From Oceanospirillales bacterium (GTDB lineage Bacteria > Pseudomonadota > Gammaproteobacteria > Xanthomonadales > SZUA-38), in NCBI GenBank assembly GCA_003233095.1, contig QIKT01000180.1:1-50840 (forward strand): a DNA stretch of 50,840 bases. The letters run 5' to 3'. Below are positions 10,110 to 38,904 of the stretch, piece after piece; within the stretch, counting starts at the first letter, position 1, and each line of letters opens with the position of its first letter. A program made the translations under genes and the position numbers. The notes under the pieces were generated by a model. The model was not told the origin of the DNA and did no database searches. It saw nothing but the letters and a program-made list of their open reading frames with translations.

Positions 10110-10304
10110 CTCTCACCACTCTGACATGGCATCGCAGTTTGATGTGGTGATTGACAGATCATGGATGCGCAGAGGGTTTGTTCACGTCATACCGAACCGA
10201 TACCTTTGGGATATGTCCAACGTTCGTTGAACTGCTATAAGCACTGTGGGCATCAGCCAATGCGGTCCAGATAGGCTGGCGATCCGCAGACATCAAGGCA
10301 TCAC

Positions 10305-10970
10305 ATGATACAGATAGAAAATCTGCGCAAGACCTACCAGACCGGAGGCGAGGTTGTCCACGCACTGGATGGGGTCGATATCCATATTGCCGAGGGTCAG
10401 TTCGTCGCGATCATGGGGCGTTCCGGCTCAGGTAAATCCACCATGCTGAACATCCTGGGCTGCATGGATCAACCGACTTCAGGCCGCTATCTGCTAGCCG
10501 GAGATGACGTCAACAGTCTGAATGATGATCAACTCTCTTCGATCCGCAATCGACGGATCGGATTCGTCTTTCAAGGATTCCACCTGCTGCCCCGACTCAG
10601 CGCTCTGGAGAATGTGCTGTTGCCCAAGCGATTCTCCGAAGGTGAAGACGCGGCCCATTCCAGACAACGAGCAGAATCCCTTCTGGAGACCGTGGGTCTG
10701 GGACCACGCATGCACCACAGGCCCAATGAAATGTCGGGTGGGCAATGTCAACGGGTTGCGATCGCCCGTTCGCTGGTCAACGACCCAGACATTCTGCTGG
10801 CCGACGAACCCACTGGAAACCTGGATTCGACGACCTCCGGTCACATTCTCGAATTACTCAACGATCTCAACGGCAAGGGGCAAACGGTGGTCATGGTGAC
10901 CCACGAACCTGATATCGCTGCCCACGCTGATCGAACCATTGAACTACTGGACGGGAAGGTTGTGTCATGA
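10305..10970 (+). CDS. ABC transporter ATP-binding protein, MacB/LolD type
   Basis: Walker A GRSGSGKST, signature MSGGQCQRVAIAR, Walker B ILLADEPTGNLD, H-loop VVMVTHEP. Confidence 0.9.
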   Translation: MIQIENLRKTYQTGGEVVHALDGVDIHIAEGQFVAIMGRSGSGKSTMLNILGCMDQPTSGRYLLAGDDVNSLNDDQLSSIRNRRIGFVFQGFHLLPRLSALENVLLPKRFSEGEDAAHSRQRAESLLETVGLGPRMHHRPNEMSGGQCQRVAIARSLVNDPDILLADEPTGNLDSTTSGHILELLNDLNGKGQTVVMVTHEPDIAAHADRTIELLDGKVVS

Positions 10971-11926
10971 ACAGATGCTGGATGGGATGGGCAGCGCTGC
11001 TATCATTGAATGTGAGTATCGCTAGTGATGTGATTCTGGTGACGGGTCAGGTTGAATCACGCCACTCTCAGGATATTCTGACACCGGTGACGACGAACCG
11101 GCAGGGCAAAATATCCGAGTTGGCCGATGAAGGCAGCTGGGTCGATGCTGGTGATGTGGTGGTCCAGTTCGACGGATCGGACGTGGATTCCCGAATTCTT
11201 GCGGCCGAAGACGACTTGATGCTGTTCAAGGCAAACATTCGCCGCGACCTGATTCGTCTGGAGATCGCGATGCGCAACGCCGATCTGGACGCCGAGAAAG
11301 CCCAGGTGGAAGTGGAGATTGCCAACATGGAAGCGGGGGTTCCGCTGGATCTGATTGGTGAACTGGAGTATCGAGAACGGCAGTTGAGAAAAGCACGCGC
11401 TGACAATGCCTTGATCGAAACCAGGCAGCAACTGTCGGATGCCACCAAGGCACTGTCCGAAAAACAGATCGAACTGGAACTGGGTCTGGCAAGAAAGACC
11501 GATAAGCTGGACATGTGGCGCAACATGCTCGAGTCCTACACCATCGTGGCCGAACAGCCAGGCTTCGTCATCCACAGTGTTCATCCGTGGAGTGGCAGCA
11601 AGCTGCAGGAAGGCGATCAGGCCCACTCCGGGATGCAAGTGGCCAGCGTGGCCCAGAACACCAACATGCAGGTCATCTCATGGGTCAATGCGGTGGACAT
11701 TCCACACCTTGCTGACGACCAGAATGTGTCAATACGTTTCGATGCTGTCGAGGCAGTGATCCTGCAAGGAACCATCAGTGAGATTGCCCTGGCCGGTGAC
11801 GTCAAGCCCGAGTGGGGTGACGGTCTGTATTATCGAGTGGTTATCGAGATGCAAGGTGCTGAGGCGCTCGAATTGTTGTCCGGCATGAGTGTCCTGGTAG
11901 AAATTCCTGTGAGGAGTTCGGTATGA
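10967..11926 (+). CDS. periplasmic adaptor (HlyD/MFP family) 1
   Basis: 319 aa with an N-terminal signal or anchor. Lipoyl-like segment (GKISELADEGSWVDAGDVVVQFD), a long coiled-coil hairpin, then a beta-barrel segment. ATGA overlap with the ATPase gene. Confidence 0.75.
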   Translation: MNRCWMGWAALLSLNVSIASDVILVTGQVESRHSQDILTPVTTNRQGKISELADEGSWVDAGDVVVQFDGSDVDSRILAAEDDLMLFKANIRRDLIRLEIAMRNADLDAEKAQVEVEIANMEAGVPLDLIGELEYRERQLRKARADNALIETRQQLSDATKALSEKQIELELGLARKTDKLDMWRNMLESYTIVAEQPGFVIHSVHPWSGSKLQEGDQAHSGMQVASVAQNTNMQVISWVNAVDIPHLADDQNVSIRFDAVEAVILQGTISEIALAGDVKPEWGDGLYYRVVIEMQGAEALELLSGMSVLVEIPVRSSV

Positions 11927-12936
11927 ACACAATCAAGCACATGGCGTTGATCACGATCATGGCGGCGGTACTGACAGCGTGTAGTCAGACAGAAACCACC
12001 GAGGTTGACGAGTCGGTCGTCAAGGTACCCAATCAAGTGTCTTCAGGTGGTGAACTTGAGGCGGTACAGACCCAGGCCATGGCCCCGCCAAGGGTCAAGC
12101 GGATTTGGCGCTATACCATTGCCTTCATGGCTCCGGATGGCACGTCAGTGGAACCCGGCACACCGGTGCTGGGATTTGAAACACAGGAGCTCAAAACCCA
12201 GCTGCTGGACAAGAATGGCGAATTGGCCAACAAACAAAGTGAACTGGAAGCCGCTCAAGTGAGACAGGTTGAAGTTCTCGAAGACAAGGGCTTGACGTAT
12301 GAAGAGCTGGACATGATGAGCGGCAAGGCCAAGCGTAAAGCCGATCTGCCCGAGGGGGTTCTTGCCGGCAACGTGTACCGTGAGAATCAGCTCAATTACA
12401 AATTGGCCAACCTCGAACTGGCACACGGCGAGATCGACGACGGTCTGACTCGACAACAACTGCGCACCGAGGAAGAGATCCTGTCCACCGAAGTGGACAA
12501 GTTGCAGGCCGAAGTCAATGAACTCCAGGTTGCGATCAAGAGCATGACCCTGTTGGCGACTCGTCCAGGCATCGTGATTCACAAAGGGGACTGGGAGGGC
12601 AACAAGTTCACCGTTGGAGATACGACCTGGGGTGGTCGGCGGGTTGTCGAAGTCGCAGACCTGAACGCGATCATCGCCCGGCTCGAAATCCCCGAACGAG
12701 ACATGACCCGGATCAAGATCGGCCAATCGGTCCGTTTTCGTCTTGACGCGAACCCTGACAAGCAATTCATTGGCATCATCGAGAGTCTCTCGAATGTGGT
12801 CCGACAGAAGTCCAAGAATCAGCCGGCCCGCGTCATTGATGCGGTGGTGAAGGTGGAAAATCCCGACCCTGAAATCATGCGCCCTGGCATGCGCGTCAGT
12901 GCCGAAATCGATATCAGTGTGGAGCAGTCATCATGA
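11923..12936 (+). CDS. periplasmic adaptor (HlyD/MFP family) 2, lipoprotein
   Basis: 337 aa with lipobox VLTAC. Coiled coil (KNGELANKQSELEAAQ...LQAEVNELQ), then a beta-barrel part (IGQSVRFRLDANPDKQFIGIIESLS). ATGA overlap. Confidence 0.75.
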   Translation: MNTIKHMALITIMAAVLTACSQTETTEVDESVVKVPNQVSSGGELEAVQTQAMAPPRVKRIWRYTIAFMAPDGTSVEPGTPVLGFETQELKTQLLDKNGELANKQSELEAAQVRQVEVLEDKGLTYEELDMMSGKAKRKADLPEGVLAGNVYRENQLNYKLANLELAHGEIDDGLTRQQLRTEEEILSTEVDKLQAEVNELQVAIKSMTLLATRPGIVIHKGDWEGNKFTVGDTTWGGRRVVEVADLNAIIARLEIPERDMTRIKIGQSVRFRLDANPDKQFIGIIESLSNVVRQKSKNQPARVIDAVVKVENPDPEIMRPGMRVSAEIDISVEQSS

Positions 12937-14153
12937 ATCGCTGCTGGACTTCCACTGCCCTGGCCGTTTTGCTGGCCGGTTGCAGCTCATCGGAGGTTGC
13001 CCAAATGCCCACCCTCGCGATCGAGCCGGGTGACTTTCATTTTGTTGTTTACGCCGATGGCGAGCTTGAAGCAGTCAATTCCACCCCGCTCACCGCCCCG
13101 CCGGGTGGTCGTGGCCCCATGGTGATCTCGTGGATCGCCCCGGCCTTCACCAGCGTTTCGGCCGGAGATGTGGTGGCCCGATTTGATGGCAGCGAGTTTC
13201 AACGCAATGCCGACGATGCCGATTATGAAATTCAGAAGCTGGGACTGGCGGTTGCCAACAAACAGCGCGAACTGAGTCTGTCGCTCAGCGGCCTGACCAA
13301 TGAATCGGAGATTGTCGGGCTGGAAATGGAGATGGCGGATAAATTCAACATTGATGATCCGATGCTGTATTCGCAAATGGAGATTATCGATTCGATGTCC
13401 GATGGCGAGTACCTGGGAGCCAAAACCGGTTACTTGGATCGGATGGGGATTCATTATGAGACCAAGTCCGACGCTGAAATGTCTGTGATTCAGACTCAGC
13501 AGAGCACCTTCGATGCCAAGCTTCAATTCAATCAGAATGGCTTGAGCATGCTGGAAGTCAGCGCGCCGCATGATGGCATGTTCGTGTTGCAGAAAAACTG
13601 GTACGGCAATCTCCCCAGGGCTGGCGAAGCCGTATTCCCAGGCACGCGTCTGGCGACCTTGCCCGACCTGGGTCAGATGCAGGCGAGCCTGTTCGTGCCC
13701 GAAGTCGAGGCCAACGGGATCAAGGAAGGGCAAACCACCACCGTTCAACTGCATGCCTTTCCCGATCGCGAGTTGACCGGTACGGTCAGTCAAATCAGCA
13801 AATCGGCTCAGCCGCGCGAACGCGACAACCCGGTCAAGTATTTTACAGTCAAGGTGTTGCTCGATCAGGCTGACCCCGAGTGGCTGCTTCCAGGGCAACG
13901 CCTCGATGCTGCCATTACGGTTGCGGATCAATCCAACGTGATGTCGGTGCCGGCGCAAGCCACCTTCCGGGATGATGCGGGCAGCTGGGTTTATGTGCAG
14001 TCAGCGGTTGGGTTTGAACGCCGAATCATCGAGACCGGGATGTGCAGCACGTCTCGTTGTCTGGTCAACAAGGGACTCAAGCCTGGAGACCGTATCGCCC
14101 TGTCAGAACCGGATATGATTGGACGCAGCTTCGCCGGATCGCCTTCCTCTTGA
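12933..14153 (+). CDS. periplasmic adaptor (HlyD/MFP family) 3, lipoprotein
   Basis: 406 aa with lipobox LLAGC. Lipoyl-like segment (VSAGDVVARFD), a beta-barrel (GQTTTVQLHAFPDRELTGTVSQIS), and a C-terminal membrane-proximal-like domain (WVYVQSAVGFERRIIETG). ATGA overlap. Confidence 0.75.
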   Translation: MNRCWTSTALAVLLAGCSSSEVAQMPTLAIEPGDFHFVVYADGELEAVNSTPLTAPPGGRGPMVISWIAPAFTSVSAGDVVARFDGSEFQRNADDADYEIQKLGLAVANKQRELSLSLSGLTNESEIVGLEMEMADKFNIDDPMLYSQMEIIDSMSDGEYLGAKTGYLDRMGIHYETKSDAEMSVIQTQQSTFDAKLQFNQNGLSMLEVSAPHDGMFVLQKNWYGNLPRAGEAVFPGTRLATLPDLGQMQASLFVPEVEANGIKEGQTTTVQLHAFPDRELTGTVSQISKSAQPRERDNPVKYFTVKVLLDQADPEWLLPGQRLDAAITVADQSNVMSVPAQATFRDDAGSWVYVQSAVGFERRIIETGMCSTSRCLVNKGLKPGDRIALSEPDMIGRSFAGSPSS

Positions 14154-15385
14154 AACTGACAGAAAGTTTTGGGCATGCGATCAGCGAGATGTTGCATCAC
14201 AAACTGCGCACCTTGCTGACCCTGCTGGGCATGGTTTTTGGCGTGGGCGCGGTGATCGCGATGCTCAGTATCGGCGAAGGTGCCAAGGCCGAAGCCATGC
14301 GCTTGATCGAATCGATGGGGCTGCGAAACCTGCTCGTCAATGCACGCCAGTTCGACCCGGAGACATTGAAGGAGATCCGTGAGGATTCACTCGGGCTGAA
14401 CCTCAACGACCGCCGAGCCATTACCGACACATTGCCATTCGTCGATCAGACCTGTGCCGAGAAAAGCATCAAGACTTACGACCTGTTTTCCAGGCAGAAC
14501 AGCAGTGATGCCAGTGTCCTGGCGGTGTCGCCAAATTGCTTCGGGATGAGTGCTCTGACCGCTGGTGCGGGTCGTCTGTTCGATCAACAGGATGATGCGC
14601 GCTACGATCAGGTTGCGGTCATCGGGTCTGAAGTGGCGGCGACTTTGTTTCCCAATGGAGACGCCGTGGGTGGGCTGATCAAGGTCAATCATCTGTGGCT
14701 GCGGGTGATCGGTGTTCTGGCCAGCCAAACACTCACCAAGGATGAATTTCAGGGCATCAAGCTCGGCGCAGAACAGAACCGCGTCTACATGCCATTGTCG
14801 ACTGCCTTCAAGCGCTTGAAATTCGAACCGATGGAAGACGAGCTGGATACCTTGCGCGTCGGTATCAATACGACCAGCAGCCCGCAGATTGCCGCACTGG
14901 CGATCAACCGGCTGATCAACCGCCGGCATGGTCAAGCCGAAGATTTCGAGATTGTCATTCCTGCCGCGCTGCTCAATCAGCAGCAACAGACTCAGCGAAT
15001 CTTCACGATTGTAATGTCCTGTATTGCGGGGATTTCTCTGTTGGTGGGGGGCATTGGCATCATGAACATCATGTTGGCCACCGTACTCGAACGCACCTCC
15101 GAGATTGGATTACTGCGAGCACTCGGGGCGCGCAAAATCGATATTCAAAGACAATTTCTGGTTGAAAGTGCAACCATTGCAGCGCTCGGTGCGATCCTGG
15201 GCATCATCATGGGGGTGGTGTTGTCATTCATTATTCAGAGTTTCGCCAACTGGCCGGTGGAGTGGTCGCTGTCTTCAATCTTGCTCGCGGTGGGAATCTG
15301 TTTACTGACAGGCATCGGTTTTGGCTGGTATCCAGCTCGACGGGCTGCCGACTTGGACCCGATTCGCGCACTGCAGTCCTCATGA
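14150..15385 (+). CDS. ABC transporter permease, MacB-like (periplasmic core domain plus FtsX)
   Basis: Proposed TTG start at 14150 overlaps the preceding TGA (TTGA), giving MKLTESFGHAISEMLHHKLRTLLTLLGMVFGVGAVI. C-terminal FtsX motif ERTSEIGLLRALGARK. The track ORF start 14042 lies inside the upstream gene. Confidence 0.85.
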   Translation: MKLTESFGHAISEMLHHKLRTLLTLLGMVFGVGAVIAMLSIGEGAKAEAMRLIESMGLRNLLVNARQFDPETLKEIREDSLGLNLNDRRAITDTLPFVDQTCAEKSIKTYDLFSRQNSSDASVLAVSPNCFGMSALTAGAGRLFDQQDDARYDQVAVIGSEVAATLFPNGDAVGGLIKVNHLWLRVIGVLASQTLTKDEFQGIKLGAEQNRVYMPLSTAFKRLKFEPMEDELDTLRVGINTTSSPQIAALAINRLINRRHGQAEDFEIVIPAALLNQQQQTQRIFTIVMSCIAGISLLVGGIGIMNIMLATVLERTSEIGLLRALGARKIDIQRQFLVESATIAALGAILGIIMGVVLSFIIQSFANWPVEWSLSSILLAVGICLLTGIGFGWYPARRAADLDPIRALQSS

Positions 15386-15423: not shown

Positions 15424-15882
15424 TCAGTCTGATTCGGGCTGATAGATGCACAGCTCCACTTCGGCGCCATCTTCCATGCCGTCGACTTGCTCGGCGCAAT
15501 CGCCTGCGAAGGCAAGATAATCGCTCAGATCGGCCAGAAGCATATTGCTGACATCATACTCGCCGCCCATGGCGCAGGGTTCGATCATGGCATAGCACTG
15601 TCCGGGCAAAGGGTCACCCAGGATCAATCGCGCCGCGCTGATCAGCTTGTTCAGCTGCCAGTCTGCCGTGTACTCCTTCGAATTCATCAGTCGATCGATG
15701 GCGGATTCGCTTTGCGCTTCGAGCTTGACGCTCAACTCCTCGGGGCACAGTCTCCAGAACTGGCCGAGCGCATCGCGAACAATCACATTGCCCATGGGGC
15801 TGATTGCATGAACGTCTTCGGCTTGCCCGATAGCCCAGTGCCAATGATCGTCAATGGCCTTCAGAATGAGTTGATTGTCCAC
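15424..15882 (-). CDS. DUF1851 / Tdi1-like (immunity-protein-like) small cytoplasmic protein
   Basis: 152 aa, acidic, no signal peptide. GQCYAMIEPCAMGGEYDVSNMLLADLSDYLAFAGD resembles the conserved C-terminal block of DUF1851 as I remember it. Not verified. Confidence 0.45.
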   Translation of the reverse strand: MDNQLILKAIDDHWHWAIGQAEDVHAISPMGNVIVRDALGQFWRLCPEELSVKLEAQSESAIDRLMNSKEYTADWQLNKLISAARLILGDPLPGQCYAMIEPCAMGGEYDVSNMLLADLSDYLAFAGDCAEQVDGMEDGAEVELCIYQPESD

Positions 15883-16017: not shown

Positions 16018-18237
16018 TTATTGATCATTAATGAGAAAGTCACCCAGCCGGATGAAAAATGATTGCTCACCGCCTTCGGAGTAGCCCAACCCGGCATACA
16101 CGGGGCCGATGGGTGACCGATAACCGAAATACACCGAAGCATTGAACAGGCTGTCTGTGAAGTTGATATCCGAGCGGTCTGCAAAGGTGTTGCCCAATTC
16201 AAGCGTACCGCCCACATAGGCCGGCAGAAGGCCGCTTTGCCCCAGCTGAAACCGGTAACCACCGAGCAATTGAGCATAGTGCTGGCCGGTGACCTCATTG
16301 AATTCAAGACCTGACAGACGAGTAAAACCACCGGCTCGAAACAGACCGTAAATGGGTGCGTTGTCATTCAGGGTGGTCTCGTAATTCAGACCCAGCTGCA
16401 GGGCGTGCCGCTTGTTGAGCGTGGTGGTGGTGAAGTAGTTGAGTGTGAACTGTTCGAAGTCATCATCGGACCCAAGGCTGCCACGAGCGGTCAGATAGCT
16501 TGCTCTGGCAGACGTCCCTGACGTCGGAAAGTAGACATCATCAAGGGTGTCATGCGTATAGCGGGCAAACAGACTGCCGGTGTTGAAGCTCAGTTCGGGC
16601 TGATTCTCGCCGATGACCAGTTCGACATCACCCAGCCCCCGAGACAGGCCAAGCGCCACCTCGGTATGATTGCCGAAGTATCGCCCGATGATCAGGTCCA
16701 GGCTGACCGTATCGACCAGAAATTCTGCCACTGCCGAATTTCTCTCGAATTCACGGAAGGTGCGCCGACGTGCATCCAGCCTCGGGTTGGCGAACCAGGG
16801 GGATACCGGGGTGAGCGGGCGGAAATACTCGGCAAATAACTCTGGTTGCTCGCCAAGTTGTGCCGCCAGTCGCCATTCCGAACCACTCTGATCCACGCCG
16901 CTTCTGAGCAAGCCGGCACGCACATTGATGGCGTTGTTCAGTCCGTCGCTGAAGAAGCTCAGACCATATTCCAGGCGATTGGGCAGGCGTCGGTCGGGCT
17001 CGATAGTCAGGACCAGACCCTGATCGCCTTCCTTGCGGACGATCTTATAGCGCGCTTCGCGAATACCACCGAGGCCATAAATTTCTGAAATGCTCCGATC
17101 CAGGGCGGCAAATTCAAGCGGTTCACCGGGCCACAGATCCAGATACTTCAGAATAATGTCATCACTGTGAGGGCTCTGATTGGAAATCTGGATGAAATTG
17201 ACGATGGGCCGACCTGTCAGGCAGGTTTCGATCTGATGGCGATGCGCTGCAAATTGATCCGTGGACAGAGTCAATGTGCTCAGCCGATCTGATTGTGCGA
17301 GGGTCGCGTCGTAACCGATGCGCATGGCATCGAGAGTTTTTTTGAAGTCAACCGACGACACCTCATCGGCCAGCGGTGGGGTGATCAGCAGATCCTGCTC
17401 GGACAGCAGCCGAATCTGGCTGACTGTCGAGTTGTAGACCATCAGGTTGCTCATCTGTTCGATCATGTCGAGCACGTCATTGATCGCATCACGCTCCAGC
17501 ATCGGGCTGGACACATCGACTGCAATGACGATATCTGCCCCCATGTCCCTGAGGACCTGGACAGGCAAGTTGTTTGCCAGTCCACCGTCTACCAACAATC
17601 GATCGTTCAGCTCCACCGGCGCAAACAGGCCGGGAATCGACATGCTGGCTCGCATTGCCCTGGCCAGAGACCCTGAATCAAGGACCACCTCCTCGCCGCT
17701 GACGATATCTGCGGCCACGGCGCGAAACGGGATCGGCAAATCATCGAATGAGTCGTTCCAGGTTTTTTCAAGAGTCATTCGCTGAAAGAACAGTTCGGCA
17801 TTCTGTCCGACCAGAGCACCCTCGGGCAGAATGAACTGCCCATCCCGGTAGCCCAGCGATGGGTCGATATAGTCCAGGTCATCATCGCGCTTGCGACGGA
17901 AAGTCTGGAAATCTCTGGGTGTCTGGTCGCGAAACATCAAGTCCCAGTCCATGTTGCCAAGGTCGCTTTCCAGTTCGTCTGCATTCATGCCTGAGGCATA
18001 CATTGCGCCGATCAGCGCTCCCATGGAGGTTCCGGCGATATAATCGATCGGAATCTGCATCTCTTCGAGCGCCTTGAGTACCCCGACGTGCGCAGTGCCT
18101 CGGGCGCCACCGCCGCCAAGAGCCAGGCCGATGCTTGGCCGACTGTTCTCGGCAGCCGTATGCAGGCAGGATTGTGCTGCAGCGATCTGCATCAGCCCCA
18201 GGCTGAGCAGCAGTGTCAAACCGATCCGGTAATGCAT
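16018..18237 (-). CDS. patatin-like phospholipase fused to a POTRA/Omp85-type beta-barrel (PlpD-like, type Vd secretion)
   Basis: 739 aa with a signal peptide. Oxyanion motif GGGGARG, nucleophile GTSMG, catalytic DGG (VDGGLANNLP). The roughly 400-aa C-terminal region has alternating beta-strand character and ends in an aromatic-rich barrel closure. Confidence 0.85.
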   Translation of the reverse strand: MHYRIGLTLLLSLGLMQIAAAQSCLHTAAENSRPSIGLALGGGGARGTAHVGVLKALEEMQIPIDYIAGTSMGALIGAMYASGMNADELESDLGNMDWDLMFRDQTPRDFQTFRRKRDDDLDYIDPSLGYRDGQFILPEGALVGQNAELFFQRMTLEKTWNDSFDDLPIPFRAVAADIVSGEEVVLDSGSLARAMRASMSIPGLFAPVELNDRLLVDGGLANNLPVQVLRDMGADIVIAVDVSSPMLERDAINDVLDMIEQMSNLMVYNSTVSQIRLLSEQDLLITPPLADEVSSVDFKKTLDAMRIGYDATLAQSDRLSTLTLSTDQFAAHRHQIETCLTGRPIVNFIQISNQSPHSDDIILKYLDLWPGEPLEFAALDRSISEIYGLGGIREARYKIVRKEGDQGLVLTIEPDRRLPNRLEYGLSFFSDGLNNAINVRAGLLRSGVDQSGSEWRLAAQLGEQPELFAEYFRPLTPVSPWFANPRLDARRRTFREFERNSAVAEFLVDTVSLDLIIGRYFGNHTEVALGLSRGLGDVELVIGENQPELSFNTGSLFARYTHDTLDDVYFPTSGTSARASYLTARGSLGSDDDFEQFTLNYFTTTTLNKRHALQLGLNYETTLNDNAPIYGLFRAGGFTRLSGLEFNEVTGQHYAQLLGGYRFQLGQSGLLPAYVGGTLELGNTFADRSDINFTDSLFNASVYFGYRSPIGPVYAGLGYSEGGEQSFFIRLGDFLINDQ

Positions 18238-18365: not shown

Positions 18366-18896
18366 TTGAGACGATCTTGCGACGCACTCATGACACAGGC
18401 ACAAATGAAGCGACAGACGTTCAGAAATGTGGTTGACGATCATCAGGATCGTTTGTTCTCCGCTGCGGTCTATATTCTTGGCAATACCGCAGAAGCTGAG
18501 GAAGTGGTGCAGGAAGTGTTCATCAAGCTCTGGCAGCAGAAGCAGACGCTCAAGGACACGCACCTGAGAGCCTGGCTGCTGAAAGTCACACGCAACGCCT
18601 GTCTGGATTTGATCCGAAAACGGGTTCACCAGCGAAACTATGCGGTTGCTGCTGGAGCACAGTCCAATGTGCTGACTCTGTACACCGAGGCAGAAGCCGC
18701 TGAGTTGGGCGATGATCTACAGCAGATGATCAACGGACTCAAAGAGCCCTATCGCTCACTGATTGTGATGCGTGAGGTCGAAGGGTACCGCTACAACGAG
18801 ATAGGCCAGGCCCTGGATTTGTCAGAACAGCAGGTCAAGGTATATTTGTACCGCGCACGCCGACAGCTGCGCGAAAAACTGGAGCAGACCCTATGA
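18366..18896 (+). CDS. ECF RNA polymerase sigma factor
   Basis: Region 2: AEEVVQEVFIKLWQQ...WLLKVTRNACLDLIRKR. Region 4: YRSLIVMREVEGYRYNEIGQALDLSEQQVKVYLYRARRQL. An alternative start at 18390 is possible. Confidence 0.85.
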   Translation: MRRSCDALMTQAQMKRQTFRNVVDDHQDRLFSAAVYILGNTAEAEEVVQEVFIKLWQQKQTLKDTHLRAWLLKVTRNACLDLIRKRVHQRNYAVAAGAQSNVLTLYTEAEAAELGDDLQQMINGLKEPYRSLIVMREVEGYRYNEIGQALDLSEQQVKVYLYRARRQLREKLEQTL

Positions 18897-19420
18897 ATGG
18901 GACCTCATTCAACGAGATGATCGAGCCCTATCTGGACGATGATCTGGATCCGGCCAGCACCGGGATGTTCGAGGCTGAACTGGCTATCAACGCTGATTTG
19001 GCCCGATCGCTTGATCAGGCGCTGGCGCTCAAGGATGCCATGGCCTCCTTGCCGCGCTATCGACTGCCGGCACACAGAGCGGCTCATATCGATGCGCAAA
19101 CCTGGCAACAGCCTCGTCGCTGGCCCGCCATGGTGGCCATCGCTGCCTGTCTGGTGGTGGCCGTCTTGATGGTCATGCTGGTCGATCGCACGCCGATACC
19201 ATCGAGTCAGGGTGTCGTGGCCGGGGCTGATCCGACCCAGCAGGAACTGGAGCAGGCGCGAGAGGATATCGCAGTTGCACTGGCCTACCTGGATCATGCG
19301 GGCGATGTCATGGGCCGCGAAGTGGGCACACTCTGGGTCGACCAGGGCATCAAGCGACCCGTCAATGCAGGCATCCGTGAGGTCCCTGGCAACGTCCGTT
19401 TTGGAGAGACACGATCATGA
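18893..19420 (+). CDS. anti-sigma factor (single-pass, zinc-less variant)
   Basis: ATGA overlap with the sigma gene. N-terminus FNEMIEPYLDDDLDPASTGMFEAELAINADLARSL has the anti-sigma-domain shape but lacks the H/C ligands. One TM helix (MVAIAACLVVAVLMVMLV). Confidence 0.65.
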   Translation: MNGTSFNEMIEPYLDDDLDPASTGMFEAELAINADLARSLDQALALKDAMASLPRYRLPAHRAAHIDAQTWQQPRRWPAMVAIAACLVVAVLMVMLVDRTPIPSSQGVVAGADPTQQELEQAREDIAVALAYLDHAGDVMGREVGTLWVDQGIKRPVNAGIREVPGNVRFGETRS

Positions 19421-19947
19421 GACTGATTCGAGTATTCATTCTTTTGATAAGTCTGTTGATTGCACCGTGGCAGGTCATTGCACAGACCGATTCGGATTTT
19501 GACTCGTTGGTCGATTTCGGTGACTTGACGGACATCACCGGAGGCAAGGAGCCGACTGTTGAAATTTCACTAGGCGGAGCGCTGCTTCGATTCGTCGGCA
19601 ATGCGACCCGTGAAGAAGATAGCGATCTGGCCGAGACACTCAGTTCTCTCAGGTCAATCGAGATTCGAGTATTTGATATTGCCGAGGGGCGCTTTGATCG
19701 TGCCAAGGATCAGGTGAACATGATCGCCGACCGCCTGACGGCCAATCAGTGGGAGCCGACGATCAAGGTCAATTCGGAGGACACCATTGTTCGGATGTTC
19801 ATGAAAATGGATGGTGAGCAGGTCACAGGCATGACCGTCATGATTCTCGAGGATCGCTCTGAGGCAGTCTTCATCAACATTGTTGGTGCGATCGATCCTG
19901 ACCAACTGGGTCGAGTCGCCGACAAGTTCGGAGTCTCCATCGACTGA
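19417..19947 (+). CDS. DUF4252-like periplasmic protein
   Basis: ATGA overlap with the anti-sigma gene. Signal peptide present. VEISLGGALLRFVG...LRSIEIRVFDI...MTVMILEDRSEAVFINIVGAIDPDQL fits my memory of DUF4252, which is often linked to ECF/anti-sigma pairs. Confidence 0.65.
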   Translation: MRLIRVFILLISLLIAPWQVIAQTDSDFDSLVDFGDLTDITGGKEPTVEISLGGALLRFVGNATREEDSDLAETLSSLRSIEIRVFDIAEGRFDRAKDQVNMIADRLTANQWEPTIKVNSEDTIVRMFMKMDGEQVTGMTVMILEDRSEAVFINIVGAIDPDQLGRVADKFGVSID

Positions 19948-34520: not shown

Positions 34521-35180
34521 ATGGCTATGAATTTCGAGCAGGCACGATCAAATATGGTAAGTCAGCAGGTGCGAACCTGGGATGTGCTCGACAGTGACGT
34601 TCTCGATGTTCTGCGTGAATTGCCACGTGAAGAATTCGTCCCTCAGAAGTATCGACAGCTAGCGTACTCCGACAGCATGATACCGCTGGATCAGGGACAG
34701 GCTATGCTCAAGCCGGTGGTCGAAGGACGATTGCTTCAGGGGCTGGATCTGAAACCGACCGATGATGTCCTCGAAATTGGCACAGGCAGTGGATATTTCA
34801 CAGCTTGTCTGGCGTCTTTGTGCCGTCGGGTGACCTCAGTCGAGAGGTATGCTGACCTGCTGAAATCGGCTCAGGGCAGATTGGACGATCTCGATTTTAG
34901 CTCGGTCGAACTGATTGAAGCTGATGCGCTGTCTGGCTGGTCCGCGACGTCCAGATACGATGTCATTGTGCTCACTGGTGCGGTCCATGCCCTACCTGAT
35001 CGGATGGCCAATTGGCTCAAGCCAGGAGGGCGAGTTTGCGCGATAGTCGGCGATTCGCCCAACATGCATGCCATGATTGCGACTGCTCAGGGAAAGTCCC
35101 TGATTCGTTCACAATCAATGTTCGAAACCGATATTCCCTATCTGATTGGCGGTGAGCCGCCAGTCCGTTTCAAGTTCTGA
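34521..35180 (+). CDS. protein-L-isoaspartate O-methyltransferase-family protein
   Basis: 219 aa with SAM-binding motif VLEIGTGSGYFTACLA. Lies directly upstream of tolC, a common arrangement. Confidence 0.8.
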   Translation: MAMNFEQARSNMVSQQVRTWDVLDSDVLDVLRELPREEFVPQKYRQLAYSDSMIPLDQGQAMLKPVVEGRLLQGLDLKPTDDVLEIGTGSGYFTACLASLCRRVTSVERYADLLKSAQGRLDDLDFSSVELIEADALSGWSATSRYDVIVLTGAVHALPDRMANWLKPGGRVCAIVGDSPNMHAMIATAQGKSLIRSQSMFETDIPYLIGGEPPVRFKF

Positions 35181-35192
35181 CAAGGTGACTCT

Positions 35193-36518
35193 GTGATTAA
35201 CCGAAACCATACGCTCATGCTGGCCATCGTGGTCGCCACGTCCTTCTCATCCGTGAAGGCAGAAGATCTGATTGATATTTATCAGCTCGCAATACAAAAC
35301 GACCCGCTGCTCAGTCAGGAAGAATCTCGCTTCAACAGCGTCTCCGAGACACAGCGGCAAGTTCTGGCTAATTTGCTGCCCTCGATCAGCGCAAGCGCCA
35401 GCTATACGGATTCTTCCGGTAATTCGACGACTGGAGATGGCAGTCAGTTTGCTTCCGATACCCAGACCGAGTCGATTCGAGTGACGCTGGATCAGACGAT
35501 CTATGACCACTCTGACTACACTCGCCTGGACTCAGCCAAGTCGAGCTCGCTGCAGGCTGAAGCCAATCTGGTTGCTGCGCGTCAGGATCTGATAATTCGG
35601 GTGGCTGAACGCTACCTTGCAGTCTTGACCAATGAAGACGCCTTCCGCTTCTCCGAGGCAGAATTGAAAGCCAATCAGAGGCAACTGGAACAGGCCGAAC
35701 AGCGTTATGAAGTGGGCCTGACTGCGATCACCGATGTGCACGAAGCGCGCGCGTCATTCGATCGTTCGAGAGCCAATCTGATCGTGGCACAGAACACGCT
35801 CGATGATTCCTTCGAGGCACTCAGTGAGATTACTGCGCAATACATCGATAACCTCGATCCACTTCAGGAAGAGGTGCTCTTTACGCCACCGGTGCCGGCA
35901 GACCCGAATGCCTGGGTTCAACAGGCTCTGAGCGAGAATCCGTCGGTACAGGCCCGCAAGTATGCGGTGGATGCGCAGTTCTACACTATTCGTACCCAAC
36001 GGGCCGGACACCTGCCATCGATCGTTGCCAATGCGTCTTATTCCGATCGTACCAATGATGGCGACCTCGGTCCCTTTGCCACCACCAATGCCGATGACAT
36101 CTCCTTTGGCTTCACGGTCAGCATTCCGATCTACGCAGGTGGATCAGTCAGTTCGCAAACTCGTCAGGCCCGCTATGATCACGAAGTGGCCATGCAACGA
36201 CTGGAGCAGGAACAGCGGACCGTCACCCGCTCAACCCGAAACAACTATCGTTCGGTGATCGCTGGTATCAGTCAGGTGGAGGCATTCAGTCAGAGTGTGG
36301 TGTCTGCCACCAGCGCGCTGGAGGCCACAGAAGCAGGTTTTGAAGTGGGCACACGAACCATTGTCGATGTGCTGCAGTCACAGCAGCTGCTGTTTCAGGC
36401 ACAGCGTGATTACTCCAGGGCGCGTCATGACTTGCTGCTGGACGAGTTGCGCCTGGAAGCCTCTGCCGGTCAAATTGATGAGGAAGATCTGAAGAAGATC
36501 AACATGATGCTTCGCTGA
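35193..36518 (+). CDS. tolC: TolC-family outer-membrane channel
   Basis: 441 aa with a GTG start and a signal peptide. DLIDIYQLAIQNDPLL...two repeated halves with the long helical pattern typical of TolC. Confidence 0.9.
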   Translation: MINRNHTLMLAIVVATSFSSVKAEDLIDIYQLAIQNDPLLSQEESRFNSVSETQRQVLANLLPSISASASYTDSSGNSTTGDGSQFASDTQTESIRVTLDQTIYDHSDYTRLDSAKSSSLQAEANLVAARQDLIIRVAERYLAVLTNEDAFRFSEAELKANQRQLEQAEQRYEVGLTAITDVHEARASFDRSRANLIVAQNTLDDSFEALSEITAQYIDNLDPLQEEVLFTPPVPADPNAWVQQALSENPSVQARKYAVDAQFYTIRTQRAGHLPSIVANASYSDRTNDGDLGPFATTNADDISFGFTVSIPIYAGGSVSSQTRQARYDHEVAMQRLEQEQRTVTRSTRNNYRSVIAGISQVEAFSQSVVSATSALEATEAGFEVGTRTIVDVLQSQQLLFQAQRDYSRARHDLLLDELRLEASAGQIDEEDLKKINMMLR

Positions 36519-36552
36519 TCGTCGTCTACTGCCTCTCGCAGCCTGATTCAGT

Positions 36553-37839
36553 TCAGGAAGGGGGGCAGTGTATTGAATCGTTCATGGCTGTCTTCACCAG
36601 TTCGATCGTCCGTTCCAGTGCCCCTCGATTTTCCTCTACCAATGCTATTGCGTTGCGCCCCATCTGTTTTCGCAGCGTCACGTCATTGCGCAGACGAATC
36701 AGCGCATCACACAATTGATCGGCGTCATGAACCAGATGCGCACCCTGCTTTTGCAGCAGCAAAGAGGTGATTTCTGCAAAGTTGAAGGTATGCGGGCCAA
36801 CCACGACCGGAATCCCCAAAGTGGCTGGTTCGAGAACATTATGGCCACCGATCTGGGCCAGTGAGCCTCCGATGAATGCGATATCCGATCCGGCATAGAA
36901 ATTGAGCAGTTCACCCAGCGTATCGACGACGAAAATCTGTGTGTCTGCTTTGACCTGGTCCCCGGTTGAACGTTGCGCCACACGATAGCCCATTGATCGA
37001 CATCTGACGATGACACGACTGAAGCGCTCGGGGTGCCGGGGTGCAATAATCAACAGCATGTCTGGGTCAGCCTTCAGCAATCGAGGGAAGGCTTCAAGCA
37101 ACGGAGTCTCGTCGTCCTCGTGGGTGCTGGCTGCAATGACGACGAATCGATCGGTGCCCCATTGCTCCCTGAACCGGATGCCTGCTTTGCGTATGTCATC
37201 GGAAATCCTCAGGTCGAATTTCAGGCTGCCGACCAGATGCAGCAATTCAGGCTTGCCCCCGAGTCTGATCAAGCGTCGATAATCGGTGTCGGTTTGTGCC
37301 GCAATGCTGTGCGTGCTGTTCAAAGCCATGGCCACCATCTCACGTCCGGGACGATAGCCTTTCAGTGATTTTTCCGACAGGCGCGCGTTGGCAACGATGA
37401 TCGGAATGTTGTGGTCACTGCACTTGAAGAACAGGTTTGGCCAGATCTCCGTTTCCATGACCACGCCAACGCATGGGTTGACTCGTTTGAGAAAGCGGTT
37501 GACCGCAGACGGCAGGTCATAGGGAAGGTAGACATGAAAGACGCTGTCACCGAGCTCCTTGATTACCTGGGCGGAGCCGGTAGGGGTAATCGTCGTCACG
37601 ACAAAGGGTCGGGATGGAAACTGCAGCAGCAAGGCTCGAATCAGTGGCAGTGCTGCGTTGAATTCACCGAGTGAGACGGCATGTATCCAGATGGAACCGG
37701 ACAGCGGCGGTGCTTTGAAAAATCCGAATCGTTCTTTCCAGCGACTGAAATATGCCGGTGCACGAATTCCTCTGAGAGAAAGACGAAGCAGGATGACCGG
37801 CGTGAGCAGATACATCAACACTGTATAGAAGTGGCGCAT
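36553..37839 (-). CDS. waaA: 3-deoxy-D-manno-octulosonic acid (Kdo) transferase
   Basis: Start at MRHFYTVLMYLLTPV (37839). WIHAVSLGEFNAALPLIRAL...ETEIWPNL. The first 54 codons of the track ORF are an upstream extension. Confidence 0.9.
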   Translation of the reverse strand: MRHFYTVLMYLLTPVILLRLSLRGIRAPAYFSRWKERFGFFKAPPLSGSIWIHAVSLGEFNAALPLIRALLLQFPSRPFVVTTITPTGSAQVIKELGDSVFHVYLPYDLPSAVNRFLKRVNPCVGVVMETEIWPNLFFKCSDHNIPIIVANARLSEKSLKGYRPGREMVAMALNSTHSIAAQTDTDYRRLIRLGGKPELLHLVGSLKFDLRISDDIRKAGIRFREQWGTDRFVVIAASTHEDDETPLLEAFPRLLKADPDMLLIIAPRHPERFSRVIVRCRSMGYRVAQRSTGDQVKADTQIFVVDTLGELLNFYAGSDIAFIGGSLAQIGGHNVLEPATLGIPVVVGPHTFNFAEITSLLLQKQGAHLVHDADQLCDALIRLRNDVTLRKQMGRNAIALVEENRGALERTIELVKTAMNDSIHCPPS

Positions 37840-37980
37840 GAGCACGAGATTCCTGCAGGGTGGAGTTCGGATCAGCCAGCTGGCCGGTCTACACGGCCGG
37901 ATTATACTATCACTGGAGTGCTCCTTCTCGGTAGAATGCTCCGGTGATACGTTGCCAATTCCATCCATAGGCCTGATGGC

Positions 37981-38904
37981 ATGCTGAGCCTGCTCAAACA
38001 TCCCCGAGACTGGCCCATGTTGCTGGGCATGAGTCTTCTCAGGCTCATCTGCCTGTTACCCTACCGCTGGCTGATGGCGTTGGGTCGCACACTGGGGCGT
38101 CTGCTTTATCATGGGCTGGCCAGTCGACGAGGTGTCGCTGCCATCAACCTTGAGTTGACCCATCCACATCTGACTGACAAGGCTCGCAGCGGCCTGCTTC
38201 GTGCCTCGTTCCAGTCTCTTGGCTGCATGGTGTTTGAAGCCGGCCTGGCCTGGTGGTCTTCGAATCGTCGGATCGCAGGACTCTCGGAGGTGCTTGGCCA
38301 GGATCAATTGTTGTCACTGCTGGGTGAGGGGCAAGGTGTATTGCTCGTTTCAGCCCATTTCACGACTCTGGAGATCGGTACCAGAATTCTGTGTGACGCC
38401 ATACCCGGTCAGATTGCCGGTTTGTATCGCAAACACGGCAGCGCTGCACTGGACACAGTGGTGCGAGGTTCACGTCTGCGCTATGCGGCCAATCTGTTCA
38501 ACCGCCTCCAGACGAGGCAGGCGGTCAGGCATATGCGTCAGGGCCATGCACTATGGTATGCAGCGGATCAGGACTATGGTCGCGGAGACAGTATTTTTGT
38601 GCCTTTTCTGGGGGTCACAGCCTCAACGATTACCTCGACGCACCACCTGGCAAGGATGGGCAATGCCCGCGTCATCATGGTCTCTCAGCAGCGACTGCCT
38701 GAGGGTCGAGGCTATCGGCTGGTGTTTTCCAGACCACTGGATGGCATCCCGTCAGACGACATTCAAGCGGACACTCTGCGCATCAATCAGCAGCTGGATC
38801 AGATGGTGTTCGCCAATCCTGAGCAATATCTGTGGATTCATCGACGGTTCAAGACACGCCCCGAGGGGCATGAGTCTCTGTACAGACGCCCTGGGAACCT
38901 CTGA
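37981..38904 (+). CDS. lpxL: lipid A biosynthesis lauroyl (late) acyltransferase
   Basis: MLSLLKHPRDWPMLLGMSLLRLICLLPYRWLMALGRTLG...VSAHFTTLEI (HX4E/D-type motif). 307 aa. Confidence 0.85.
   Translation: MLSLLKHPRDWPMLLGMSLLRLICLLPYRWLMALGRTLGRLLYHGLASRRGVAAINLELTHPHLTDKARSGLLRASFQSLGCMVFEAGLAWWSSNRRIAGLSEVLGQDQLLSLLGEGQGVLLVSAHFTTLEIGTRILCDAIPGQIAGLYRKHGSAALDTVVRGSRLRYAANLFNRLQTRQAVRHMRQGHALWYAADQDYGRGDSIFVPFLGVTASTITSTHHLARMGNARVIMVSQQRLPEGRGYRLVFSRPLDGIPSDDIQADTLRINQQLDQMVFANPEQYLWIHRRFKTRPEGHESLYRRPGNL

Follow-up and report, generated by a model that had tools for sequence, protein, structure and literature searches.

This analysis concerns a cluster of five genes that encodes a MacB-type ABC (ATP-binding cassette) exporter together with three different periplasmic adaptors. 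The cluster lies on contig QIKT01000180.1 of an Oceanospirillales bacterium assembly (GCA_003233095.1); the stretch analyzed, termed here the window, comprises positions 1 to 50,840 of that contig (50,840 nucleotides, nt). The five genes overlap one another, occupy positions 10305-15385 of the forward strand, and follow the order ATPase, first adaptor (A1), second adaptor (A2), third adaptor (A3) and permease; all five open reading frames (ORFs) lie where a first-pass annotation of the window had placed them. The adaptors belong to the HlyD or membrane fusion protein (MFP) family, and their lengths in amino acids (aa) are likewise as first annotated:

10305-10970, + strand: ABC ATPase, 221 aa, MacB/LolD-type nucleotide-binding subunit
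10967-11926, + strand: adaptor A1, 319 aa, HlyD/MFP protein having a signal peptide without a lipobox
11923-12936, + strand: adaptor A2, 337 aa, HlyD/MFP lipoprotein (lipobox LTAC)
12933-14153, + strand: adaptor A3, 406 aa, HlyD/MFP lipoprotein (lipobox LAGC)
14150-15385, + strand: MacB-type permease, 411 aa counted from the TTG at 14150

Each gene overlaps the next by four nt (ATGA at 10967, 11923 and 12933, and TTGA at 14150), as the first-pass annotation had reported, and such overlaps prevail throughout the family (32/51, 22/52, 51/57 and 44/52 for the four junctions in order). The TTG start of the permease is credible because orthologues open with an ATG at the same position (for example, MRLVDSFRHA in related locus L009 against (M)KLTESFGHA in the window). 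A GGAG-like element precedes each of A1, A2 and A3, and no Shine-Dalgarno sequence is found before the permease TTG, a pattern suggesting that translation of the permease is probably coupled to, and dependent upon, that of A3. The earlier claim that this arrangement enforces co-expression in a fixed ratio is consistent both with the unbroken chain of 4-nt overlaps and with a complex of 2:2:2:2:2 stoichiometry. A scan of the 195-nt upstream region (10110-10304) found no σ70-consensus promoter; no convincing intrinsic terminator was found at the operon, terminator-like sites there being at or below the chance level; and Rfam and tRNA scans of the window gave no matches.

The ATPase and the permease are both recognizable members of the MacB (type VII) family of ABC transporters. 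The ATPase matches Pfam ABC_tran (1.3e-34), and among Protein Data Bank (PDB) structures its best match is Spr0694 (5xu1_A, 4.6e-69), the nucleotide-binding domains of MacB being found at about 1e-60. The permease matches Pfam MacB_PCD (7e-30, residues 21-249) and FtsX (5e-21, residues 291-402), has four transmembrane helices plus a periplasmic core domain, and is matched over its full length by MacB structures (5gko, 3e-52; 5nik_J, 3e-51; 5lil, 1e-50). At the level of NCBIfam equivalog families, none of the window's five proteins is assigned. The best models for the ATPase, the N-terminal region of MacB (252 bits) and LolD (245 bits, cut-off 308), both fall under their equivalog cut-offs, in the case of MacB because the model describes a fused protein (NF007826, 200-252 bits against 966). 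Other scores are the MacA equivalog (NF008606; A2, 18.8 bits against 342), LolCE (47.9 against 362), DevB (24.6-27.8 against 129), DarC (17.3 against 450) and DarD (218 against 375). The sole model passed is the generic RND_mfp, by A3 only (103.2 against 94.9). Judged by these scores, the window's proteins are relatives, not orthologues, of E. coli MacAB.

All three adaptor ORFs match MFP profiles: HlyD_3 and HlyD_D23 are found in A1 (2e-06 and 6e-05), in A2 (5e-10 and 2.5e-12) and in A3 (2.8e-12 and 2.5e-10). That they are paralogues, as had been proposed, is borne out by pairwise identities of 21-26% (E from 1e-12 to 3e-25). The sign from which this paralogy had first been read, an N-terminal MNRCW shared by A1 and A3, is a coincidence; the closest orthologues lack it (MNRFC and MRSLP in L002, MNAGK and MSRVF in L009).

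The paralogues differ in domain content. A1 is a three-domain (lipoyl, α-hairpin and β-barrel) adaptor resembling EmrA and has no membrane-proximal domain; A2 is similar, the best PDB match to the A2-family profile being EmrA (4tko, 1.5e-11), with the alignment reaching EmrA's C-terminal end. When the A1 and A2 proteins of Gammaproteobacteria are aligned to the A3 profile, the alignment ends at about position 330 of 399, that is, at the β-barrel. As the first-pass annotation had noted, an extra C-terminal, membrane-proximal-like domain is confined to A3 among the window's three adaptors. The A3-family profile matches MacA (4dk0, 8.5e-20; 5nik, 6e-13) through the membrane-proximal domain, and an AlphaFold2 model of A3, built from a mixed homologue alignment (predicted local distance difference test score, pLDDT, 88.6; predicted template-modeling score, pTM, 0.64), has predicted hairpin helices at 87-140 and 148-206 and a predicted extra β-domain at 323-389, its best Foldseek matches being E. 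coli MacA within MacAB-TolC (9qgy_G, 2e-23; 5nik_D, 3.6e-21). A3 is thus a MacA-like, four-domain lipoprotein adaptor. In Acidobacteriota this distinction fades: against the same A3 profile, A2 reaches position 390 of 399 and A1 reaches 352-394, that is, partly or fully into the membrane-proximal region. The ancestral state was likely one of three four-domain adaptors, from two of which the membrane-proximal domain was later lost.

They differ also in anchoring, again in agreement with the earlier annotation, where signal-peptide cleavage and lipoprotein sorting are read from sequence patterns. A1 has a short signal peptide that ends in SIA, directly before SD, and has no lipobox. Its orthologues carry Sec-type N-terminal signals with AxA-like sites, or, in Acidobacteriota, a longer hydrophobic anchor, and A1 is probably soluble once its signal peptide has been cleaved. 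A2 carries a lipobox (LTAC) within the window's lineage and a plain signal peptide instead in Marinicella; the lipobox of A3 (LAGC in the window) is kept in nearly all loci of both phyla. An adaptor is expected to remain in the inner membrane, for which the E. coli rule is an Asp at position +2. The lipidated Cys is followed by Ser-Gln-Thr in A2 (11980-11985) and by Ser-Ser-Ser in A3 (12981-12986); the +2 residue is highly variable among A3 orthologues (G, S, Q, D, K, T, A, E), and no conserved Lol-avoidance signal is visible after this Cys in A2 or A3 across the loci.

The arrangement is a conserved family rather than a local oddity. A genome scan recovered 55 loci from two phyla, in which ORFs were called and scored against the window's five proteins. 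The sources are a Lysobacterales metagenome-assembled genome (MAG), which is the closest at 73%, some 20 Marinicella genomes and MAGs (including the complete NZ_CP171822), other gammaproteobacterial MAGs, and Aminicenantes and Terriglobales of the Acidobacteriota. Every sufficiently complete locus among them has the order ATPase-A1-A2-A3-permease, each position matching its counterpart in the window best, and the loss of a paralogue is seen in 0 of the 55. Two loci seemed at first to be short of an adaptor; one of these (L043) contains a 10-N scaffold gap and the other (L049) contains frameshifts. In the latter, which comes from one long-read MAG, the frameshifts (L049:5900-9200) affect all three adaptor genes and leave the ATPase and permease intact, reflecting either an assembly indel error or a pseudogenized copy. 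Because the scan used an A2-family alignment with a single peptide pattern, which the fused forms of Rhodanobacteraceae described below escaped, the true distribution is wider than 55 species.

Neighbor-joining trees of the adaptor modules, which carry no support values, contain three clades, A1, A2 and A3, each with both gammaproteobacterial and acidobacterial members and with similar internal branching. Hence the triplication is ancient and the three genes have been inherited together ever since; these ancient orthologous clades, together with conservation over the full length, exclude both a recent duplication in tandem and a decay of the copies. Homologues of A2 form at least 100 clusters, cultured Marinicella species among them, and A1 shows very few close relatives in a word-indexed search because it evolves fast. 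Database entries for these proteins bear generic names such as "HlyD family secretion protein" and "efflux RND transporter periplasmic adaptor subunit".

One structural property is shared by all three paralogues without exception: the insert between the two halves of the lipoyl domain is exactly 127 residues long, with no net insertion or deletion, in 52/52 A1, 52/52 A2 and 51/51 A3 proteins (155 sequences). Predicted helix lengths (about 54 + 59 residues per hairpin) are likewise equal in the model of A3 and in that of the fusion protein discussed below. The hairpin tips (residues at about 125-140 in A1, 142-157 in A2 and 138-153 in A3) are, by contrast, conserved within each paralogue and different between paralogues, with the motifs VP..FIGELEY.E.QL in A1, LP.SVIA.NEY.ENQL in A2 and FNIDDPLLY..IEII in A3. 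The tips of A1 and A2 have in common a Pro at offset 58 from the lipoyl anchor, a Tyr at 67 and QL at 71-72, whereas A3 has DDPxLY. As for the canonical adaptor tip motif, R-x3-L-x6-S, A1 keeps R-x3-L with Asn in place of the Ser, A2 keeps R-x3-L only, and A3 lacks the motif.

In many genera A1 and A2 are encoded as a single protein. By exhaustive HMMER search A1 has 1516 relatives, and about 40 of the best 150 matches are 615-800 aa long with two matched stretches each (at least two of these roughly 40 two-module proteins, P0229 and P0245, look like frameshift artefacts rather than true fusions). When scored with family hidden Markov models, proteins of about 630-660 aa have an N-terminal module that is best classified as A1 and a C-terminal module best classified as A2, while the N-terminal module of 740-800-aa proteins scores about equally as A1 and A2. 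For 14 fusions placed on the neighbor-joining tree, the N-terminal modules fall on the A1 side (14/14) and the C-terminal modules within the A2 clade (14/14). The modules are joined by a linker of 10-25 residues with no second signal peptide. Homologues of one such fusion, P0118, form at least 288 clusters, with members from Frateuria terrea, Rhodanobacter spp., Dyella, Fulvimonas and Aquimonas. The gene order is ATPase, fusion, A3, permease in Rhodanobacter sp. B04 and Frateuria terrea and also in two metagenomic contigs. Fusions occupy at least four lineages of the tree and an unfused locus, L005, is nested among them, implying that fusion, or fission, has occurred repeatedly. (A 45-aa ORF upstream in L005 is unremarkable and probably spurious.)

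A second class of 740-800 aa (P0128, P0166, P0219, P0243 and others) likewise joins two adaptor modules. In its 784-799-aa members (P0128, P0166, P0219, P0243) the alignment extends into the membrane-proximal region for both modules, and in those of about 740-750 aa (e.g., P0155, P0190) for the C-terminal module alone.

A natural fusion of this kind is Rosetta-stone evidence that A1 and A2 are adjacent within the same assembly at a ratio of 1:1. An AlphaFold2 model of the fusion (111 sequences; pLDDT 90.4, pTM 0.80) consists of two identical lipoyl-hairpin-β-barrel modules, predicted to lack a membrane-proximal domain, with predicted helices at 78-130/139-197 and 387-439/448-506; the best Foldseek match of each module is EmrA, including protomers of assembled EmrAB-TolC (4.4 Å over about 323 columns). 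Its pTM, as compared with 0.64 for the single A3, would imply that the two modules are packed side by side in a fixed arrangement.

These observations bear directly on how the three adaptors are used. The first-pass annotation had left two options, a hetero-oligomeric adaptor ring or a single ABC engine serving alternative channels or substrates. In the latter case three homo-hexamers would be swapped on one engine for different substrates, conditions or ducts, an idea that draws on the known adaptors MacA, AcrA and EmrA, all of which are homo-hexamers, and on the differences in anchoring and domain content among the paralogues, which could mean different partners. Covalent fusion, however, excludes A1-only and A2-only rings wherever it occurs, and its repeated occurrence with A3 kept alongside is hard to reconcile with three alternative homo-hexamers. 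Moreover, the adaptors are co-transcribed and coupled, with no visible independent regulation; a single tolC was noted in the window, and no locus has one linked to it; and A1 and A2 lack the membrane-proximal domain used to engage the periplasmic domain of the transporter (PMC5985334). Interchangeable homo-hexamers are thus considered very unlikely, and the hetero-oligomeric option is favored by the absence of any separation of the three genes in 55 loci, by congruent clades, by matched hairpins and by the A1-A2 fusions.

An outer-membrane duct, if there is one, would have to come from elsewhere. As the first-pass annotation had stated, no outer-membrane factor is encoded by the operon, and this holds for the family, since in 68/68 related loci the surrounding sequence out to about 7 kb is free of TolC homologues. 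The tolC gene that it had placed at 35193 is confirmed (35193-36518, + strand, 441 aa; Pfam OEP, 5.4e-64) and lies 20 kb from the operon; it is the only outer-membrane factor identified among those ORFs of the window that were scanned. Its surroundings (34521-38001), with pcm (PCMT) before it and waaA (Kdo transferase) after it on the opposite strand, look like those of a housekeeping locus. This TolC is a candidate exit duct that is not genetically linked to the exporter.

Failing such a partnership, the adaptors might form a chamber on MacB that does not dock onto TolC at all, serving a machine like YknXYZ or Spr0693-0695 or a mechanotransducer for envelope maintenance. Consistent with this, an outer-membrane factor gene adjoins 0/68 loci, the R-x3-L-x6-S motif is only partly kept in A1 and A2 and is absent from A3, and MacB homologues of Gram-positive bacteria work with adaptors where there is no outer membrane (PMC5985334). 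Yet the hairpins are long and rigidly conserved in length, as expected if the tube they form has to span a set distance to its partner, and a housekeeping tolC is present in the window. Furthermore, many TolC-dependent pumps, E. coli macAB included, have their outer-membrane factor encoded outside the operon. Little probability is therefore given to a duct-independent machine.

The reading preferred here, with slightly better than even confidence, is that the five genes encode a single MacB-type (type VII ABC) envelope exporter in which A1, A2 and A3 form an equimolar hetero-hexamer, (A1-A2-A3)×2, that encircles the MacB dimer. How the subunits are ordered in the ring is much less certain than what the genes encode and that all three adaptors are used together. 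In the established stoichiometry, two MacB, six MacA and three TolC protomers make up the pump (PMC5985334). A two-fold symmetric dimer beneath a six-membered ring presents three non-equivalent adaptor positions per permease protomer, a number (6/2 = 3) equal to that of the paralogues, each of which would be specialized for one of these positions. A3, being lipid-anchored and the only one here with a membrane-proximal domain, would probably make the main contact with the permease periplasmic domain and with the membrane, and the remaining places in the lipoyl and β-barrel rings and in the tube of six hairpins would be filled by A1 and A2. Copy numbers would be equal (2 ATPase : 2 A1 : 2 A2 : 2 A3 : 2 permease). 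The length-matched hairpins would meet a TolC-type duct, encoded elsewhere, in a tip-to-tip fashion, and ATP-driven movements of the MacB periplasmic domain would expel a substrate from the periplasm or the outer leaflet. Such a ring fits the presence of exactly three paralogues and never fewer, the matched hairpins and the unbroken translational coupling.

A different use of the same parts would be an alternating tube, (A1-A2)×3, resembling that of TriAB, with A3 anchored in the membrane outside the ring and serving, for example, as a recruiter, as a regulator or as a collar at the base, seated on MacB's periplasmic domain. This would adopt an established solution, an alternating ring of two paralogues, and would better suit the three-fold symmetry of TolC; A1 and A2, moreover, are both three-domain and EmrA-like (A3 being MacA-like), share tip landmarks that A3 lacks, and are the only two ever fused. 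Against it, A3 has a full-length hairpin with the same 127-residue insert, for which no role would be left; unequal stoichiometry would be required despite continuous coupling; and a single six-membered ring normally surrounds the periplasmic domain of MacB, leaving no obvious room for extra adaptors. The restriction of fusions to A1 and A2 might be explained by the lipobox of A3 alone, which needs a free N-terminal signal peptide and so would keep A3 from ever being the downstream partner. Likewise, the membrane-proximal reach of A2, and partly or fully of A1, in Acidobacteriota makes the three adaptors look nearly four-domain there and, as such, roughly equivalent members of a ring. An alternating A1-A2 tube is on balance unlikely.

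The equimolar (A1-A2-A3)×2 ring has difficulties of its own. Its composition is deduced from genomics only, and the co-inheritance, congruent trees and equal hairpins are also what one would expect of adaptors that merely share an operon and a periplasm. A 2×3 ring is out of register with the TolC trimer, so that each paralogue would face both intra- and inter-protomer grooves, and the tips are nonetheless paralogue-specific and conserved. In this lineage the ring would contain just two membrane-proximal domains, so that its chamber, unlike that of MacA6, would be open at the base. Inner-membrane retention is not obvious for A2 and A3, which have Ser rather than Asp at +2, and at no locus is an outer-membrane factor genetically linked.

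Taken a step further, the equimolar reading yields an evolutionary picture, to which about even credence is given: a natural three-paralogue ring following the two-fold symmetry of MacB would descend from an ancestor with three four-domain adaptors, four of the six membrane-proximal domains having been lost in Gammaproteobacteria and A1 and A2 having been fused repeatedly. The lost domains might leave lateral entry portals at the chamber base.

This matters because of a symmetry puzzle common to tripartite pumps, in which a six-membered adaptor ring must join a motor that is dimeric (MacB) or trimeric (resistance-nodulation-division, RND) to a duct that is trimeric. Where all six adaptors are identical, genetics cannot tell their non-equivalent positions apart, and TriAB, which is confined to RND pumps, is to our knowledge the only natural handle on them so far. 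If the equimolar ring is correct, then the mismatch between a dimeric pump and a hexameric ring has been solved by subunit specialization, and this family is the ABC counterpart of TriA/TriB and offers a natural means of learning what each adaptor position does. Three dedicated adaptors, along with fusions and domain-loss variants, would allow each position to be mutated, tagged or deleted separately and would reveal which positions need a membrane-proximal domain and a lipid anchor; carriers include cultured Marinicella, Rhodanobacter, Frateuria and Dyella, making such experiments feasible. The analysis also flags an entire family that is now annotated merely as generic HlyD or RND adaptor proteins.

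The genomic surroundings vary by lineage: Rep/UvrD and patatin genes in the window, ccoGHIS and a TonB receptor gene in Marinicella, and SNF2 helicase and glucokinase genes in Rhodanobacter. No conserved neighboring gene pointing to a substrate was found across the lineages compared. In the window, the permease stop codon is followed after 38 nt by a convergent gene (15424-15882, - strand) encoding a 152-aa protein with a type VI secretion system (T6SS) immunity Tdi1 C-terminal domain (Pfam, 1.3e-06). Next comes a 739-aa PlpD-like patatin phospholipase fused to an Omp85-type β-barrel (16018-18237, - strand), also convergent with the operon. The patatin gene is also downstream in L001, the only close relative with a contig that long, and is not found there in other lineages. 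In L001 it directly follows the permease gene, which suggests that the Tdi1-like gene is an orphan immunity gene inserted in the window's lineage only. Beyond the patatin gene, at 18366-19947 (+ strand), genes for an extracytoplasmic function (ECF) sigma factor, an unannotated 175-aa ORF and a DUF4252 protein are joined by 4-nt overlaps throughout; a similar cluster led by an ECF sigma factor gene follows the patatin gene in L001.

In comparison with known systems, what appears to be new is a MacAB-type pump with a set of three adaptor paralogues; MacAB-type pumps as such, and the TriAB precedent of two adaptors, are known. The first-pass annotation had allowed that this architecture might already be a characterized family, but no ABC tripartite system with three, or with naturally tandem-fused, adaptors came up in the full-text literature searched, within an incomplete coverage of journals, and reviews of 2021 and 2026 name only TriAB as a multi-adaptor pump (PMC8277102; PMC13328181). 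Two apparent precedents were set aside: in VarABCDEF of Vibrio cholerae, VarA is the sole adaptor, VarB being a 40-aa remnant and VarC an outer-membrane protein; and the "three membrane fusion proteins" of a uranium-resistance review are unrelated, separately encoded RND adaptors.

The system resembles MacAB-TolC of E. coli and A. actinomycetemcomitans in having a MacB permease with a periplasmic core and an FtsX fold, a MacB/LolD-type ATPase, a four-domain, MacA-like adaptor with a long hairpin (A3) and an outer-membrane factor encoded outside the operon. It differs in that three diverged adaptor genes, falling into three orthologous groups, stand in place of a single adaptor species, two of their products having only the first three of MacA's domains; in that the anchors are lipid (A2 and A3) or none (A1) rather than an uncleaved N-terminal helix; and in that ATPase and permease are separate proteins, with a gene ratio that implies equimolar synthesis rather than 3:1. 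Spr0693-0695, YknXYZ and DevBCA likewise have separate ATPase and permease genes and an adaptor in the same operon, but one adaptor each. EmrA of EmrAB-TolC, the best PDB match by both profile and fold, is, like A1, A2 and the fusion modules, a three-domain protein; it serves, however, as a homo-oligomer for a major facilitator superfamily transporter without a periplasmic domain, whereas the partner here is a MacB permease with a large one and a four-domain paralogue, A3, is always present.

A precedent for several adaptors in one pump is TriABC-OpmH of Pseudomonas aeruginosa, where TriA and TriB play distinct roles within a 3:(3+3):3 RND pump, and a tandem-fused AcrA is functional (PMC13328181; PMC8277102); a TriAxB fusion chain (6vej_P) is among the PDB matches of the A3-family profile. 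In both systems diverged adaptor paralogues are encoded in tandem, those of TriABC being used in one ring in non-equivalent roles, and in both, dividing six by the transporter's symmetry gives the paralogue count. Here that transporter is a MacB ABC dimer rather than a trimeric RND protein, which would account for three paralogues instead of two, and the proposed ring is two-fold and would not be in register with trimeric TolC; in addition, the fusions of this family are natural and recurrent rather than engineered. Tandem paralogues, strict co-inheritance and natural A1-A2 fusions support, at the level of gene content, a joint action of the adaptors such as that of TriA and TriB.

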